From a virus (Duplodnaviria > Heunggongvirae > Uroviricota > Caudoviricetes), in IMG/VR virus record IMGVR_UViG_2778261498_000010, positions 1 to 7,002 of that record: a stretch of DNA of 7,002 nucleotides; one strand, written 5' to 3'. A program made the translations under genes and the position numbers. The notes under the pieces were generated by a model that worked only from the letters and a program-made list of their open reading frames with translations, was not told where the DNA came from and made no database searches. Shown piece after piece: positions 1-7,002 of this stretch; within the stretch, counting starts at the first letter, position 1, and every line of letters starts with the position of its first letter.

Positions 1-465
1 ATGCGTTTCTGCCTTATTTTGATCACAGCACTGTTTCTGGCCGGGTGTAGCCACCATAAAGCACCGCCGCCAAATGCCAGACTTTCTGATTCGATTACCG
101 TTATTGCCGGTTTGAACGACCAGCTACAGAGCTGGCATGGCACGCCGTATCGTTATGGTGGCATGACGCGGCGCGGTGTGGACTGTTCGGGGTTTGTGGT
201 TGTGACGATGCGCGATCGTTTCGATTTGCAGCTGCCCCGAGAAACCAAAGAACAAGCCTCTATCGGCACGCAAATTGATAAAGACGAGTTGCTGCCTGGT
301 GACCTGGTCTTTTTCAAAACGGGCTCCGGACAAAATGGTTTGCATGTAGGTATTTACGATACCAACAACCAATTTATCCACGCCTCTACCAGCAAGGGAG
401 TGATGCGTTCCTCACTCGATAATGTTTATTGGCAGAAAAATTTCTGGCAGGCGAGACGAATCTAG
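1..465 (+). CDS. nlpC: NlpC/P60-family lipoprotein (predicted peptidoglycan endopeptidase)
   Basis: 154-codon ORF beginning at window base 1. N-terminal lipoprotein signal with lipobox LAGC. NlpC/P60 catalytic context DCSGF ... HVGIY ... IHAS. Recognised from memory as essentially E. coli NlpC. Promoter and RBS lie outside the window. Confidence 0.88.
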   Translation: MRFCLILITALFLAGCSHHKAPPPNARLSDSITVIAGLNDQLQSWHGTPYRYGGMTRRGVDCSGFVVVTMRDRFDLQLPRETKEQASIGTQIDKDELLPGDLVFFKTGSGQNGLHVGIYDTNNQFIHASTSKGVMRSSLDNVYWQKNFWQARRI

Positions 466-711: not shown

Positions 712-1323
712 ATGAAGATTTTTTTGGAGAATCTTTATCATTCTGATTGCTATTTCCTGCCGATAAGAGATAACCAGCAAGACCTTGTCGGCGTTGAGTT
801 AATTACCCATTTCTCCAGTGAAGATGGTACGGTTCGTATACCGACGAGTCGGGTTATAGCGCAACTTACCGAGGAGCAACATTGGCAATTATTTTCTGAG
901 CAGTTGGAATTGCTAAAATCATGCCAACACTTTTTTATTCAACATAAACTCTTTGCCTGGCTTAATTTAACCCCGCAAGTGGCTACTTTATTATTAGACA
1001 GGGATAATTACGCGGGCGAACTATTAAAATATCCGTTTATTGAACTGTTGATTAATGAGAATTACCCGCATCTCGATGAAGGAAAAGATAATCGCGATCT
1101 TTTTTCCTTATCGCAAATGTATCCCCTTGTGTTAGGTAATTTGGGCGCAGGCAATAGCACAATGAAAGCGGTTTTTGATGGTCTTTTCACCCGCGTCATG
1201 CTGGATAAAAGTTTTATTCAGCAACAAATCACGCATCGCTCCTTCGAACCGTTTATTCGTGCGATCCAGGCGCAAATTTCCCCATGTTGCAATTGCATCA
1301 TCGCGGGGGGCATTGATATGTAA
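712..1323 (+). CDS. ydiV: EAL-like (degenerate) anti-FlhD4C2 factor YdiV; the ORF closes at 203 codons, apparently short at the C-terminus
   Basis: ORF with RBS-like GAGGGA 8 nt upstream of the ATG. Translation recognised as YdiV (degenerate EAL domain, IIAGGID in place of the usual AEGVET-type block). From memory the E. coli protein is ~237 aa, so ~34 C-terminal residues including the expected QG-containing end motif are missing from this frame. Synteny nlpC then ydiV is as in E. coli. Confidence 0.8.
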   Translation: MKIFLENLYHSDCYFLPIRDNQQDLVGVELITHFSSEDGTVRIPTSRVIAQLTEEQHWQLFSEQLELLKSCQHFFIQHKLFAWLNLTPQVATLLLDRDNYAGELLKYPFIELLINENYPHLDEGKDNRDLFSLSQMYPLVLGNLGAGNSTMKAVFDGLFTRVMLDKSFIQQQITHRSFEPFIRAIQAQISPCCNCIIAGGIDM

Positions 1324-1354
1324 CTTCGCGTTTTTTTCTGGGCTAATTGGCGCG

Positions 1355-1396
1355 CAATTCTGGGCGGAGAGAGCGCAACCAAAAAGCCCAGAATTG
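1355..1396. repeat. 11-bp perfect inverted repeat (caattctgggc / gcccagaattg) with 20-nt spacer; a third copy of the 8-mer ttctgggc lies at 1336-1343
   Basis: Seen directly. It sits in the interval between the end of the ydiV reading frame and the invertase stub. Confidence 0.5.
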
Positions 1397-1433
1397 GACG
1401 CTAAATTATTAGTCTCATACTGATGATTTACCC

Positions 1434-1529
1434 TCAAAAAATCAGCTCATATCCTGCACAGTTCAACGCATTGCGTTGTAAATCGGTGTTCTGGTCATTT
1501 GTTGATGCGCGTACATAGCCTATAAACAT
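1434..1529 (-). pseudogene. Serine invertase (Pin/Gin/Hin/Cin family) N-terminal stub: 31 codons then TGA
   Basis: Minus-strand translation from the ATG at 1529: MFIGYVRASTNDQNTDLQRNALNCAGYELIF*. It matches the extreme N-terminus of Din-family invertases, including the catalytic Ser context GYVRxSTxDQ. No downstream frame continues the family sequence. The ORF is below the six-frame track threshold, so it was found by hand. Confidence 0.8.
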
Positions 1530-1583
1530 GGTAGATCACCCTGACAAAAGCAGGAATGATGCCATTTGCTCGCTATTTCTGCC

Positions 1584-1609
1584 TTTTCATAAACGTTGGT
1601 TTGGGAGAA
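1584..1609. repeat. Right inversion crossover site (hix/gix-like, 26 bp)
   Basis: Read on the minus strand: TTCTCCCAAACC-AA-CGTTTATGAAAA. It matches the left site in 22 of 26 positions; the inner half-site and AA core are identical. It lies immediately upstream of the invertase stub start, as gixR lies before gin in Mu. Confidence 0.7.
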
Positions 1610-2095
1610 GGCTCTGCATTACCTGTTGGTGTCCCTGTTCCGTGGCCTTCAGCCACTCCGCCAACAGGCTGGCTGAAATGCAATGGTGCAGCTTTTTCTG
1701 CTGAAGAATACCCGGAACTGGCAAAAGTTTACCCGACAAATAAATTGCCTGATTTACGTGGTGAGTTTATTCGTGGCTGGGATGACGGGCGGGGGATTGA
1801 TACAGGTCGCTCTATTTTAAGTATTCAGGGGTATGCAACGGAGGATCATGCTCATGGATTACCGTCAAGATCCACGATTGTGACTGATGCAACGATTAAT
1901 TTCTATTTTGATGAAAGCTGGGTAAATAGTGGCACTGACATTATCAAAAGAGGAAACACAAACGATGCCGGATTACCAGCACCGGATTATGGAACCTTTA
2001 AAACATATAAACAATCAGTGGCTGGTTTAGGTGCCGCAGCCTCAGAAACGCGTCCGCGTAATATTGCATTTAACTATATCGTGAGGGCAGCCTGA
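1598..2095 (+). CDS. Alternative side tail fibre C-terminal cassette (S'v-type, tail-collar-like receptor-binding domain); promoterless, in the OFF orientation
   Basis: Coding begins in frame at the inner half of the right crossover site (NVGLGE). Tail-collar-like motif GWLKCNGAAF..YPEL...LPDLRGEFIRGWDDGRG. The six-frame track extends the ORF to 1556 (ATGATG), but those codons lie outside the invertible segment in the invertase promoter region and are probably not a real start. Stop overlaps the Tfa' start (TGATG). Confidence 0.75.
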   Translation, partial: GLGEGSALPVGVPVPWPSATPPTGWLKCNGAAFSAEEYPELAKVYPTNKLPDLRGEFIRGWDDGRGIDTGRSILSIQGYATEDHAHGLPSRSTIVTDATINFYFDESWVNSGTDIIKRGNTNDAGLPAPDYGTFKTYKQSVAGLGAAASETRPRNIAFNYIVRAA

Positions 2096-2697
2096 TGCAT
2101 AAAGCAATATTAAATAGTGAGCTCATTGCAACAAAGGCAGGGGATGTTACCGTTTATAACTATGATGGTGAAACACGGGAATATATTTCCACTTCAAATG
2201 AATATCTTGCCGTTGGTGTCGGCATTCCGGCATGTTCCTGTTTAGATGCCCCTGGCACACATAAGGCTGGTTATGCAATCTGCCGTTCTGCAGATTTTAA
2301 CTCATGGGAATATGTGCCAGACCATCGCGGTGAAACGGTCTATAGCACCAAAACAGGAGAATCAAAAGAAATCACCGCTCCGGGTGATTACCCTGAAAAT
2401 ACAACCACTATCGCCCCATTAACGCCATACGATAAATGGGATGGTGAGAAATGGGTGACCGATACTGAGGCACAGCATAGCGCCGCAGTAGATGCAGCAG
2501 AAGCACAGCGCCAGTCGCTGATTGATACTGCAATGGCTTCCATCAGTCTGATTCAACTGAAATTGCAGGCCGGACGTAAACTGACGCAGGCAGAAACAAC
2601 CCGGCTTAACGCTGTGCTGGATTACATTGACGCGGTGACGGCAACAGATACCAGCACCGCGCCGGATGTCATCTGGCCTGAACTGCCGGAGGCGTAG
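2095..2697 (+). CDS. Tail fibre assembly protein Tfa' (chaperone for the alternative cassette)
   Basis: 200-codon ORF whose start overlaps the cassette stop. C-terminus DTSTAPDVIWPELPEA is typical of the phage tail-fibre assembly (Tfa/U) family. Resembles e14 TfaE from memory. Confidence 0.85.
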   Translation: MHKAILNSELIATKAGDVTVYNYDGETREYISTSNEYLAVGVGIPACSCLDAPGTHKAGYAICRSADFNSWEYVPDHRGETVYSTKTGESKEITAPGDYPENTTTIAPLTPYDKWDGEKWVTDTEAQHSAAVDAAEAQRQSLIDTAMASISLIQLKLQAGRKLTQAETTRLNAVLDYIDAVTATDTSTAPDVIWPELPEA

Positions 2698-3109
2698 GCC
2701 ATTCAATATCTGGCGCACCGGAAGTATCGACCAGTTCCAGTGCGTCCAGGTAATCCAGCCACAAATTATATTGCGCCAGTTCGTCACCTTTCAGACGACC
2801 AATAGCCGCTTTACCAGGCCATTGTTTACTGTTCATATAATCGTTGGCCTGATTAATCAATTGCTGCTTCTCCAATTCGGCTGCAGCAATTTGTTCCTCA
2901 TGTGTTGGTGGTGGAATTTCAGACCATGCAGGAAAACCATTTTCTCCAGCGATACGGATTTTTCCTTTCGGCGGTAATCCGGAAAACTCAATATACACTT
3001 GCTCATCAACTTCAACAGCATCATCTGGCCATGAGTCAGCTTGAGTGTAATCCTCTTTCATCTCCAGCGGATAGAAAGAGTTTGTAGTCGCGGAATATAT
3101 GTAATTCAT
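2669..3109 (-). CDS. Tail fibre assembly protein Tfa (chaperone for the currently expressed fibre)
   Basis: 146-codon ORF with RBS GGAG 8 nt upstream of the ATG at 3109. N-terminus MNYIYSATTNSFYP and C-terminus DTSGAPDIEWPTPP are Tfa-family hallmarks. Its 3' end overlaps the convergent Tfa' by 29 bp. Confidence 0.85.
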   Translation of the reverse strand: MNYIYSATTNSFYPLEMKEDYTQADSWPDDAVEVDEQVYIEFSGLPPKGKIRIAGENGFPAWSEIPPPTHEEQIAAAELEKQQLINQANDYMNSKQWPGKAAIGRLKGDELAQYNLWLDYLDALELVDTSGAPDIEWPTPPAVQAR

Positions 3110-3130
3110 TTTTCACTCCATATAGCTAAA

Positions 3131-3775
3131 TTAACAGCCTAACGCTAAAAATGAAGCGCCGAGGCCAGGAGTACTGGCTCTGGATATAAATTTAACCGGG
3201 TCGGGACTAAAACCTGCACAGGCAATATAACCAACAGCCCCGCTATCTGGTGTGTAGTCTTGTGAGACCAAAACACGCAGACATCTGTTTGGAAATGCAA
3301 TCGGGAAATGGGTTACTACATCCTGTGCAATGCCTGGTGCGCCGATTGAGCCCCACTGAAGAATAAAACCTGATGGTAATTTTTGATATCCAGTACCTGA
3401 AACAGAAAGCGTGAAGCTACCCATATCAGGTATCTGATTCGCCCCTGTCCCTACATTCCTTTTAGCCGCTTCTCCCAAACCAAGGTTTTTGAGAGCCGTG
3501 TTCACCGTGCCATCCGATTTGATATCGCCAAACGGATTCTTGCGGCTTAACAGCAGCGCACGAAGCGCGGTAAGTAGCTGATCCGTTTTTTGGGGGTCAG
3601 GTTGAATATGTGCACTACCAAGAACATTAAGGAGTTCCTGCTGTAAATCACGGGTTGCCCCCTGCTGATTATTTAAATAATCAGCAGTTACGATGGTTCC
3701 TTCTATCCCCTGAGTGGGGTCACCATCATGAAACAATTGATCCGGTGTATTTATCGGGGGCATCAGATTTTGCAT
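3131..3775 (-). CDS. Side tail fibre protein (Stf): constant N-terminal ~98 residues plus currently fused variable C-terminal domain
   Basis: 214-codon ORF; the start ATG overlaps the upstream gp48 stop (TAATG). The left crossover site lies at codons ~94-102 (ALKNLGLGE). Size and position resemble e14 StfP. Followed by Tfa. Confidence 0.8.
3470..3495. repeat. Left inversion crossover site (hix/gix-like, 26 bp) inside the fibre gene
   Basis: Plus strand TTCTCCCAAACC-AA-GGTTTTTGAGAG. From memory this closely resembles hixL (TTCTTGAAAACCAAGGTTTTTGATAA) and gix. It is in inverted orientation relative to the site at 1584-1609. Confidence 0.7.
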
Positions 3776-4347
3776 TACTGCTCCTCCTTATATGTGAAAT
3801 GGCAATAAGTAAAAGCGGGTTTAAGGTCTTTAAATGTTTCTTCCAGTACAGGGGCACCAAAGGAAAGTAACGGTTCCCCGGCTGCAGATACTCCGGTTCT
3901 GAATCTGTAAGCTGGCGTTTTGCTTCCTGTGACATTAACCTGCCAAATCCATCGGGCATCTGTTATATAGAGACGATCACCACATCGGTTTACCCCCGTT
4001 CTGAATGGATGGAGTTCAGTAATTGTTATGGTGTACCCGAGGCTGACTGCAAGTTGTTTAAAATAAGGGATAGATAACCCACCAGTTGCAGCCATCTTTA
4101 TAAGAATATTTTCTCGGCGTTCCTGCTGTGTGGCACCATCGCGGGGTATTACTCCATACACTCGTTCCCAGTCAGACAGCGTCATGGATGCGTAAAATGG
4201 TGTGACAGATGCGAGCACTCGTGCAGCTGACGCTTTTACTTCATCCATAATGGCTGCTTCTGCGTTCAGTTCTGCTGAAATATATTTCCCGTTCGGGTCA
4301 TAGCTGACCGGTGGTAACATGGCACGAAATAAATCAACCGTATTCAT
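3775..4347 (-). CDS. gp48/YmfQ-like tail protein (DUF2313-type), upstream partner of the tail fibre
   Basis: 190-codon ORF between the baseplate J-like gene and the fibre gene, the position occupied by ymfQ in e14 and gp48 in Mu. GGAG-containing RBS. Family assignment from memory of YmfQ-like proteins. Confidence 0.7.
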
Positions 4348-4350
4348 GTA

Positions 4351-5430
4351 TTAACTCTCCCGGGGAAATGGCTGGATATCAATACTCCCCGGACGCAGCC
4401 ACTCCCATGTGGATTCATTGACAACTGCTTTTACATTATCTGACGGCATAATAATCCGCCGATCACTGACGCCAGAAATTAATGAAATCTGAGTTTCCAG
4501 TTGTGAAATAATTAATTCCTGCCCCGGTTCCAGTCGGTTCATAAAATCCGTGATAACTTCAGTTATCTGTGGTTTTATCTGTTCAACAGTAAGGCCACTG
4601 GTTTTTATTCTGACAACAAAATCAACGTTTTTTTTCGTTGGTGCCAGTACCATTGTATCCTTCGCCGTTACCGGGCGGACATCATTGATATGGGCCATCA
4701 CCGCGTTAATCAGCTCCTGTGACGGTAAATCATTTGCAGAAGTGATAACCACATCAACCGTACCGGGGCCACGACGTAACGGCTCCACGTATGCAGAGGT
4801 AACACCGTCAACTTCCAGCGCCCAGCGTTTGTAATCATATTTATTACCGCCAGCGGGCGGCCTGCGCAGAATATCCAGATAACGCGCCAGCAGGCCGGCG
4901 TCACTTTCCCTGTCCGTTCCGCCGGTCAGGGATTTAATCGTCACCGTGCTGTTGATGCCTTCCGGCGGGCTGACCAGCGTTGCCGTCTGCGTCGTGGATG
5001 CATTCGTCTGTGCACCCGTGGCGGTGCTTTTTACCGTCACCTCTGCGCTGCCTTCATCACCGATGGTGCAGTCTGCTGTGGTGGCCACGCTGACACCTTC
5101 ACCACGAATTTCCGCACCGGCTGGCAGCGTCTTACCGGGTGCGCCGGTAATCACTACCGGACCGGATGAGGCCGTTGCTTTTTTACGAAAAACATTGCGC
5201 GTACGACAGTGCAGCTCCAGATATTCAGGGTCAGCCGTGTCAGGAAACACCTGACGGAGGATCCATCCCTGATGCATATAAAGTCCGTCCGCCACGCCGG
5301 ATACGGCATTTGCACGAATGCGGTAATCGCTGTCAGCGCTGGTGTCGATGGTTTCTCCCGGCAGGGCGTTAGCGATATCACGTAGCTGGCGTTCTGTGTT
5401 TTCAGCAACGCCCGGAACAGGAAACGGCAT
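4351..5430 (-). CDS. Baseplate J-like protein (Mu gp47 / P2 gpJ family)
   Basis: 359-codon ORF with size, position and sequence character typical of baseplate J-like wedge proteins. Start overlaps the upstream gp46 stop (TAATG). Confidence 0.8.
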   Translation of the reverse strand: MPFPVPGVAENTERQLRDIANALPGETIDTSADSDYRIRANAVSGVADGLYMHQGWILRQVFPDTADPEYLELHCRTRNVFRKKATASSGPVVITGAPGKTLPAGAEIRGEGVSVATTADCTIGDEGSAEVTVKSTATGAQTNASTTQTATLVSPPEGINSTVTIKSLTGGTDRESDAGLLARYLDILRRPPAGGNKYDYKRWALEVDGVTSAYVEPLRRGPGTVDVVITSANDLPSQELINAVMAHINDVRPVTAKDTMVLAPTKKNVDFVVRIKTSGLTVEQIKPQITEVITDFMNRLEPGQELIISQLETQISLISGVSDRRIIMPSDNVKAVVNESTWEWLRPGSIDIQPFPRES

Positions 5431-5780
5431 TACATAATCCTCACAGGGTGTTCAAATGTCTGCGGTGTGCCCGCGTTATCCGTGACGGTGATTAACAGCA
5501 ACAGCCAGCCGCGCTGACCCGGTTTCGTGTCAACAGTAATGGATTTTGCCCGCCCGTCATTGAGCAGGGGCTGAAGTGCCTGGCTGGCATACTGCGCCGC
5601 CAGCCAGTGAACACGGGAAACGTCTTTTTCCCGCTTCAGCTCGTGCAGGCGTGACCCCAGCAACGCATCCGCCCAGTAACTGCCAAGCGGTGTCGCCAGT
5701 CGCAGATAAACCGCGTTATGGAGTGTGTAAATCCGGCGGCGTTCGTAGTCGCCGGTTGCAGGTGAAATCGTCTGGTCCAT
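5430..5780 (-). CDS. Mu gp46-like small baseplate protein
   Basis: 116-codon ORF between the V/gp45-like and J/gp47-like genes, the conserved position and size for gp46-family proteins. Confidence 0.65.
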   Translation of the reverse strand: MDQTISPATGDYERRRIYTLHNAVYLRLATPLGSYWADALLGSRLHELKREKDVSRVHWLAAQYASQALQPLLNDGRAKSITVDTKPGQRGWLLLLITVTDNAGTPQTFEHPVRIM

Positions 5781-5833
5781 GCCGCCAGTCTGGCAGCATG
5801 GACAGGTCAGAATCAGGTGAGGGTGTTCAGCAC

Positions 5834-6487
5834 TTAATTAACCGGCGTGTCAGACATGCCGTGTGGGGTCGGGTGTTTGTGCGTTCCGATTTTAACGCCA
5901 TTAATGGTGACGTCAACGGAGGTAATCACACCGCTTGTGTGGTTGATGTTGCCTTCAAAGGTGGCGGCGTATTCATTACCTCCACGGATGGCCATGCCAC
6001 CGTTGCCGGTGATTTTGCCTTCCACCGTCAGCCTGTTGCTGGCTGTCAGTAACGGTGTCGTGAATGCGGCGCTTTCCTCTGCCTCAACCTCATAGCGTTT
6101 GCATTTCACGCGATAAACATCACATTCATGCTCAATAACCCGCCCGCGCTTCAGTACGATTTTCGCGCCTTCATCGGTATACAGGGCCACCTCGCCGGGT
6201 TTCAGTTCCGTCAGGCGATATGCGCCGTGCTCGGTGGCCACGACGACGGTATGGGAGGTATTACCGTTCAGCGGAACAGCAATACCCATTGAACCGGGCG
6301 GCGGGGATGTGGTGAGGCCGTAATGCTGAAAATACTCCGCACCGTCCAGCTGTTCGCCTGCCAGCCCGTTCAGCTGGAGAAGCTGTACTTTGGTCGAACT
6401 GTCCACCGTACCGGTCACCACCCTGAATGCCTGGCGAACGGCGACCAGTGCCTGCTGTATGCGCTGATTAACCTTGTCCCACATCAT
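5834..6487 (-). CDS. Baseplate assembly protein V / Mu gp45-like (baseplate spike)
   Basis: 217-codon ORF. C-terminal ...GVKIGTHKHPTPHGMSDTPVN and central beta-rich region are typical of the gpV/gp45 spike family. Start ATGATG overlaps the gp44-like stop. Confidence 0.75.
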   Translation of the reverse strand: MMWDKVNQRIQQALVAVRQAFRVVTGTVDSSTKVQLLQLNGLAGEQLDGAEYFQHYGLTTSPPPGSMGIAVPLNGNTSHTVVVATEHGAYRLTELKPGEVALYTDEGAKIVLKRGRVIEHECDVYRVKCKRYEVEAEESAAFTTPLLTASNRLTVEGKITGNGGMAIRGGNEYAATFEGNINHTSGVITSVDVTINGVKIGTHKHPTPHGMSDTPVN

Positions 6488-7002
6488 TTCTCCCAGACCT
6501 TAACAATGGCGACCTCTTTTTTCTTTTTGCCCCTGCGGTGATGGCGTTTCTTCTCGCGCGGGAAGGCGTCAGGTATCCACACGCCGTCCTCCTTAAAGCG
6601 AAGCCGGGTTGTCTGCCCGTTCCGGCCTCCGCTGAACTCACGCCCCATCAGGAAAAAGATGGCATCAATGCCGTGGAGTTCGCTGACAATCCGCACCCGC
6701 TGACCGGGCTGCCACAGAACACCATCTGCCGTGCGATGACCTGCAACCAGTGCGACGATATCCAGCCCCGACAGGCGGGCATCACTCATCATTTTTTTTG
6801 CGCGCCAGCTCACCTGCTCCAGATTGCTGGTGTCGCCCTGGGTGATAATCTGCGGGCGGTAATAATCCACGGTGGGGTCGGTGGCCACGGCTTTCATGTT
6901 ATGAATGCCTGTCTGACCACTGTCCGTATTACCGCTGTCCTGCCCGGATAATGTGCGCACGCTGCCGTCCTCGTTCCAGATATCCAGCGGCACCACGGCC
7001 AC
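6484..7002 (-). CDS. gp44/gpD-like baseplate hub protein, C-terminal part only (5' end beyond the window)
   Basis: Open frame running to the window edge with no start inside the window. Its position immediately upstream of the V/gp45-like gene matches the Mu gp44 / P2 gpD slot. Assignment rests mainly on gene order. Confidence 0.55.
   Translation of the reverse strand: MAVVPLDIWNEDGSVRTLSGQDSGNTDSGQTGIHNMKAVATDPTVDYYRPQIITQGDTSNLEQVSWRAKKMMSDARLSGLDIVALVAGHRTADGVLWQPGQRVRIVSELHGIDAIFFLMGREFSGGRNGQTTRLRFKEDGVWIPDAFPREKKRHHRRGKKKKEVAIVKVWEK

Follow-up and report, generated by a model that had tools for sequence, protein, structure and literature searches.

The stretch of DNA analysed here (the window, 7002 nt) comprises the last 7002 nt of draft contig NLVE01000066.1 (GCA_002510335.1), which ends inside a prophage and carries one junction only. 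Its host part begins with nlpC and extends into the 5' part of ydiV; beyond this lie a cluster of short repeats, the N-terminal stub of a serine DNA invertase, an invertible tail-fibre segment and a series of baseplate genes (Table 1). The ydiV ORF enters the prophage DNA and reaches a stop codon at 1321-1323, giving the protein the end ...IAGGID-M-stop. In comparisons with more than 5000 E. coli genomes, similarity to ydiV ends at 1318; at the junction, intact ydiV continues from ...GGCATTGATA into CGCCAGAAAT, and the window continues from ...GGCATTGATA into TGTAACTTCGCG. This insertion in ydiV was found in none of 5426 complete E. coli genomes, and the exact truncated YdiV protein is present in only two assemblies of a large protein index.

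Table 1 Features of the window, with positions counted from its first letter
Feature	Position	Strand	Basis and remarks
nlpC	1-465		Opens the window
ydiV, 5' part (anti-FlhDC factor)	712-1318	+	Cut after codon 202; ORF and alignment with intact ydiV
GATA, presumed host target tetranucleotide	1315-1318		Adjoins the prophage tip; assigned from the 4-bp duplications in seven of seven relatives
Terminal TG (CA-3' on the minus strand)	1319-1320		Presumed cleavage and strand-transfer point; flank similarity is lost here in all independent insertions
R1, terminal putative transposase-binding site	1322-1345	+	Half-site TCGCG at 1326-1330, 5-nt spacer, core TTCTGGGC at 1336-1343
R2, putative site, direct, 22 bp from R1	1344-1367	+	Half-site TGGCG at 1348-1352, core TTCTGGGC at 1358-1365
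R2-R3 spacer, loop of the apparent hairpin	1368-1383		Variable; least conserved stretch within the end
R3, putative site, inverted	1384-1407	-	Core GCCCAGAA at 1386-1393, half-site CGCTA at 1399-1403 (TAGCG on the minus strand)
Serine DNA invertase (Gin/Pin type), N-terminal stub	1434-1529	-	MFIGYVRASTNDQNTDLQRNALNCAGYELIF-stop; Pfam Resolvase, E 4.6e-4
Inversion crossover sites	1587-1610 / 3469-3492		24 nt, 92% complementary; bound the invertible tail-fibre segment
Prophage body in the window	1556-7002		Invertible tail-fibre genes with assembly genes; baseplate genes follow on the minus strand

The repeats singled out in a preliminary description of this DNA could be read directly in the sequence. 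A perfect 11-bp inverted repeat (caattctgggc at 1355-1365 and gcccagaattg at 1386-1396) with a 20-nt spacer, together with a third copy of ttctgggc at 1336-1343, lies between the end of the ydiV frame (1323) and the invertase stub, which runs on the minus strand from 1529 down to 1434. That description was also right that this is not a classical intrinsic terminator, there being no T-run terminator downstream of the repeats. The octamer TTCTGGGC occurs three times in the window when both strands are counted, all three copies falling within the 58 bp from 1336 to 1393, against an expectation of 0.21; none of 200 dinucleotide shuffles reached three copies. The copies at 1336 and 1358 are direct, and were recovered by a repeat search as a pair with a spacing of 22, while that at 1386 is inverted. 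When mismatches were allowed, the inverted pair grew to 19 nt (1347-1365 and 1386-1404, 84%). Presence of the repeat in intact ydiV, which that description had named as grounds for refutation, was checked against the intact gene, which does not contain it.

On the inward side, DNA similarity to intact invertase genes reaches ~1414 (matches start at 1414-1424), and the stub consists of 31 codons with a frameshift. We considered whether 1319-1410 might itself be diverged invertase coding sequence, and rejected this because similarity to invertases begins only at ~1414 and because the stretch is also present in family members that have no invertase. The sole recombination scar lies at ~1408-1414, where the end abuts the stub, inward of R3. 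The invertase in cis is a stub while the crossover repeats are intact, and any inversion of the tail-fibre segment that still takes place would depend on an invertase acting in trans. The first ORF of the invertible segment encodes 179 amino acids here, and 169, 132 and 124 in the related prophages of strains E2348/69, TUM1881 and CFS3292, respectively. The baseplate genes that follow are Mu gp48-, gp47-, gp46-, gp45- and gp44-like (Pfam Phage_Mu_Gp48, Baseplate_J, GP46 and Phage_Mu_Gp45), and the same gene order is found in the complete relatives described below. The break of the NCBI contig at 7002 falls inside the gp44-like gene, and one assembly of the ydiV insertion (Logan contig SRR3987537_149) breaks 25 nt past the ydiV stop, inside R1/R2; these contig breaks hint that related prophage DNA is present in this genome in more than one copy.

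The DNA next to the ydiV junction recurs elsewhere in E. coli. The 237 bp at 1319-1555 are found at ~98% identity in ~20 complete E. coli genomes, beside different host genes, and the outermost 94 bp (1319-1412) in 126 of the 5426 complete genomes (~2%). Among the matches listed, this 94-bp end starts at query position 1 or 2, that is, at the TG at 1319, and its host neighbours include eutC, scpC, mhpT, hyfB, aslB, fliH, rhsC and an M24 peptidase gene. When 11 insertions were aligned, their outer flanks were unrelated and similarity began exactly at TGTAACTTCGCG (TGTAAC). Inward of ~1408 the neighbours vary as well, and may be the invertase stub, a tail-fibre gene, or DUF4376 or DUF1353 genes. 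Because the DNA inward of ~1408 differs in this way, 1319-~1408 can be taken as a conserved terminal module that is common to prophages with different tail-fibre cassettes.

A search of deposited phage genomes for this end did not find it, and returned matches to the invertase only. O157 strains were absent among the matches listed, and the Sakai prophage Sp18 probably belongs to another lineage. When GTDB representative genomes were searched for the layout TTCTGGGC-N14-TTCTGGGC-N16-24-GCCCAGAA, a single match was obtained in an unrelated metagenome-assembled genome (Candidatus Eisenbacteria, DATGVE010000037.1); its flanks are unlike the E. coli prophage end, and the match may have arisen by chance, the DNA being GC-rich, or by convergence on the same layout.

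Complete prophages of ~35.7 kb that carry this module at their end and interrupt a host gene were found in E2348/69, TUM1881, CFS3292, UMNF18 and strain 47258. Their genes are arranged in the order CI-type repressor, Ner-like HTH protein, 680-aa transposase, AAA ATPase, Mor and lysis genes, followed by terminase, Mu gpT head protein, sheath, tape measure, gp44-48 baseplate proteins and tail fibres. The genes for the transposase and its ATPase partner lie beside the left end. The transposase matches Pfam Mu-transpos_C, HTH_Tnp_Mu_1 and rve, and the ATPase AAA_22. Against MuA it could be aligned only over the catalytic core (phmmer E ~5e-4 on the core); in an hhalign comparison with 26% identity over 121 aligned columns, D308 and D374 aligned with MuA residues 269 and 336, the catalytic aspartates D269 and D336 of that enzyme. 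The nearest transposase in deposited phages, that of Pseudomonas phage VW-6B, is 49% identical, and Pseudomonas Mu-like transposases such as that of H70 are, among the matches listed, only ~31% identical. This prophage lineage is a Mu-like transposable one, without a representative among the deposited phage genomes searched.

The complete prophages made it possible to compare both of their ends. The right end, which finishes in GTTACA, carries TTCTGGGC at nt 18-25 and 40-47 from the tip in direct and at nt 68-75 in inverted orientation; in the left end, which starts with TGTGGGGTAGTG (TGTGGGG), three direct copies occupy nt 18-25, 92-99 and 143-150, so that the core of R1 lies at the same distance from its tip as that of L1. 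The six copies align as bipartite sites of ~22 bp, in which T-N-G-Y-G is followed by 5 nt and TTCTGGGC; the spacer of L2 is shorter. Because R3 is inverted, R2 and R3 face each other and together make up the 11-bp inverted repeat of the window. Scanning with a weight matrix derived from these six, circular for the six but informative elsewhere, yielded no further site in either the 39-kb locus or the window; the plain octamer TTCTGGGC has one extra copy inside the prophage of the 39-kb locus. Across 12 divergent right ends, in which R1 is conserved, conservation is 96-100% in the terminus, half-sites and cores (85% in the R2 half-site), 78-95% in the spacers and 69% in the DNA inward of R3; among family members with different tail modules, similarity stops just inward of R3.

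Left ends were detectable in 60 genomes as against right ends in 126, and this excess of right ends implies that some copies are fossils. In E. coli OkiPb01676, near pphA, the 94-bp end and the invertase stub are fused to a lambdoid prophage of the integrase type, not Mu-like; R1 is two T's short there and the R3 core reads AACCAGAA, and this copy gives the impression of an orphan end in decay that has travelled with a tail-fibre cassette. In E. coli F163, one copy in the phn operon has neither the terminal A nor a target duplication and lies between phnJ and a truncated ABC ATPase gene, which suggests a deletion beside the prophage end.

All seven clean insertions are flanked by a 4-bp duplication of host sequence (CACT, TATC, ATTC, CTGA, CATC, GATG and CCCT). 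That of TATC was confirmed against intact scpC, the constant terminal T...A is excluded from the duplication in six of the seven, and the duplication in E2348/69 fits 5 bp as well. A 2021 survey of transposable prophages puts the duplication at 5 bp in Mu and 6 bp in B3 and takes "5/6 bp" as the recognisable scar (PMC8705779). We found no report of a 4-bp duplication for a transposable phage in the literature searched, the coverage of which was incomplete, and published work on SfMu and on Yersinia Mu-like phages gave nothing on ends or target duplications. From the duplicated sequences, the stagger in this E. coli lineage appears to be 4 bp. By the same pattern, GATA at 1315-1318 is predicted to occur again at the left junction as a 4-bp target duplication; the second copy is not visible because the contig ends at 7002. 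On the + strand of the window, the other junction is predicted to read ...CTACCCCACA GATA CGCCAGAAATAATGG, ~35.7 kb away. A search of IMG/VR for the predicted junction, as ACTACCCCACA followed by GATA and CGCCAG, did not find it.

Two of the complete prophages, in UMNF18 and strain 47258, are separate insertions in which all six sites read TTCTGGAC instead of TTCTGGGC, L2 being TTCTGGAT. The changed sites include the three direct repeats of the left end, for which there is no possible hairpin partner. Compared with the enzymes of TTCTGGGC-type prophages, the transposases of these two elements share substitutions only at residues 137-188 (T137S, K139T, V149I, M151Q, D156E, D181Q, S182E and V188L); outside this block their background is mosaic, that of UMNF18 resembling E2348/69 (97% identity) and that of 47258 resembling TUM1881. 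The joint change of sites and transposase block is the signature expected if the transposase reads the sites, here in two variant elements that possibly go back to one shared ancestral change. Residues 137-188 lie N-terminal to the catalytic core, which begins at ~279-300, and the end-binding domain of MuA occupies an equivalent position N-terminal to its own core. Pfam gives no match for residues 91-300 of the transposase, so it is by position only that 137-188 would be assigned to an end-binding domain. We regard this block as a candidate specificity-determining segment.

Taken together, these comparisons make it very probable that a Mu-like transposable prophage inserted in ydiV has its right end (attR) at 1319-~1408, with three putative transposase sites in it. 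By analogy with Mu, we infer that transposase would bind at R1-R3. Monomers of the MuA-family DDE transposase would occupy R1-R3 at this end and L1-L3 at the other; the transposase would bring both ends together in a transpososome and nick the DNA just past the terminal CA (the other strand of the TG at 1319-1320). The 3' ends would then be joined to staggered positions of the target, with a stagger of seemingly 4 bp, and repair would copy the staggered bases to yield the target duplication, which is itself observed in the relatives. In the window, transposition would have split ydiV after codon 202, with GATA as the predicted duplicated target.

The repeats could instead be an element at a deletion breakpoint, as had been proposed, whether the trace of an illegitimate recombination or deletion event or a small repeat element in its own right (MITE or IS fragment) caught between ydiV and the remains of a decayed prophage. 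That the adjacent invertase is reduced to a 31-codon stub does point to some recombination nearby, and an orphan copy of the end sits on an unrelated lambdoid prophage, yet at every locus examined the ~90 bp are joined inward to DNA of a phage tail-fibre region and end outward at the same TG, and in complete prophages with transposition genes and target duplications they pair with a left end that has the same motif. With the recombination scar located inward of R3 and not at the repeats, and with a ydiV junction that is a transposition insertion point of a form common to at least 15 other insertions, this origin is exceedingly improbable. The further suggestion that the repeats are a relic of a phage end or attachment site was correct in placing them at a phage end, since they sit at the extreme end of the prophage; they are neither a relic nor an integrase-type attachment site, as the insertion sites vary, the complete relatives have no integrase, and the sole serine recombinase nearby is the invertase stub of the tail-fibre segment.

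An RNA structure had also been proposed, and a functional RNA or DNA hairpin might act as a terminator or insulator against read-through between ydiV and the prophage, or as a regulatory RNA. The predicted fold of 1319-1420 as minus-strand RNA has an energy of -38.9 kcal/mol (z = -5.45 against shuffles), and UMNF18 has one two-sided pair change, from G-C to A-U; strong folding, however, follows automatically from inverted copies of one site, and the lone compensatory change is also present in R1 and in the three left-end direct repeats, which have no partner. Independent support was lacking: Rfam gave no match beyond a sub-threshold chance hit, a terminator search gave only a trivial 5-bp stem within chance, no promoter was found, and RNA covariation was no better than in shuffles, 98 of 500 of which reached the observed value. 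The pairing is, moreover, disrupted in both 08-00022 and OkiPb01676, GB089 has only a G-U wobble in its place, and we consider a hairpin function just as improbable as a recombination scar. The sites could also be genuine phage-end sites that serve another protein, such as the prophage repressor, a packaging (pac) protein or a host factor, and sites for pac proteins and host factors can indeed occur at phage ends. Against this, the motif is present at both ends with its terminal copy equidistant from the tips, as expected for an enzyme that cuts both tips; it co-varies with a transposase segment N-terminal to the catalytic core; and the weight matrix places no site near the repressor and early-promoter region or elsewhere inside the prophage. 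Recognition by another protein therefore seems very unlikely, and sites for the transposase at a prophage right end remain the preferred reading.

A transposable-prophage right end is a textbook kind of feature, exemplified by Mu attR with its sites R1-R3, from which this lineage differs in site sequence, spacings and target duplication. In both systems the end is the tip of a transposable prophage of ~36 kb with TG...CA termini and three sites at each end. Their terminal sites lie equally far from the two tips, R2 repeats R1 in the same orientation at a distance of exactly 22 bp, R3 points the other way, and a long spacer sets L1 apart from L2 and L3. The order of repressor, ner, transposase and ATPase, then Mor, then head, tail and baseplate genes and an invertible tail-fibre segment is likewise shared. 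A regular-expression search of the Mu ends places the half-site CGAAA(A/G) at 22-27, 127-132 and 167-172 in the left end; in the right end it occurs at 22-27 and 44-49, in inverted orientation at 56-61, and once more in direct orientation at 13-18, inside R1. Unlike in Mu, the core of each site here is TTCTGGGC and unrelated to CGAAA(A/G), and nothing is shared between the ends of the two systems beyond the terminal TG. The gap between R2 and R3 is 20 nt here and 6 in Mu, L1 and L2 are spaced by 74 and L2 and L3 by 51 compared with 105 and 40, the target duplication is 4 bp compared with 5, and com/mom and a complete gin are missing from the DNA that separates the tail genes from the end in this lineage.

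Similar ends are found in other transposable elements. Tn7 also has several ~22-bp sites, bound by the DDE transposase TnsB and distributed asymmetrically between its ends, as well as an AAA+ partner that selects the target; it is a transposon and not a phage, has a 5-bp duplication, and differs in its site sequences and proteins. The Pseudomonas phages of the B3/D3112 type and other Mu-like prophages have TG-CA termini, many insertion sites, a short duplication and repeated transposase sites in the terminal ~200 bp (PMC8705779). The E. coli lineage resembles them in its TG-CA termini, varied insertion sites, short duplication and repeated putative sites, and differs from B3 in having a duplication of 4 instead of 6 bp.

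A more novel reading is that the prophages form a distinct and as yet uncharacterised branch of transposable phages, whose MuA-family transposase would recognise a different bipartite site (TNGYG-N5-TTCTGGGC) and cut with a 4-bp stagger; we give this proposal an even chance. If it holds, the natural variants TTCTGGGC and TTCTGGAC, each with its own version of residues 137-188, would mark the specificity segment and provide two orthogonal transposase/end systems.

The striking perfect inverted repeat beside ydiV can thus be explained without invoking a new element, and the comparisons describe how the ends are built in an E. coli Mu-like lineage not contained in the deposited phage genomes searched. 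The natural co-variation of sites and transposase could be used to map or re-engineer end recognition. For the host, the prophage boundary can be placed exactly between positions 1318 and 1319, and ydiV, which encodes an anti-FlhDC motility regulator of flagellar synthesis, would have been inactivated by transposition and not by deletion.
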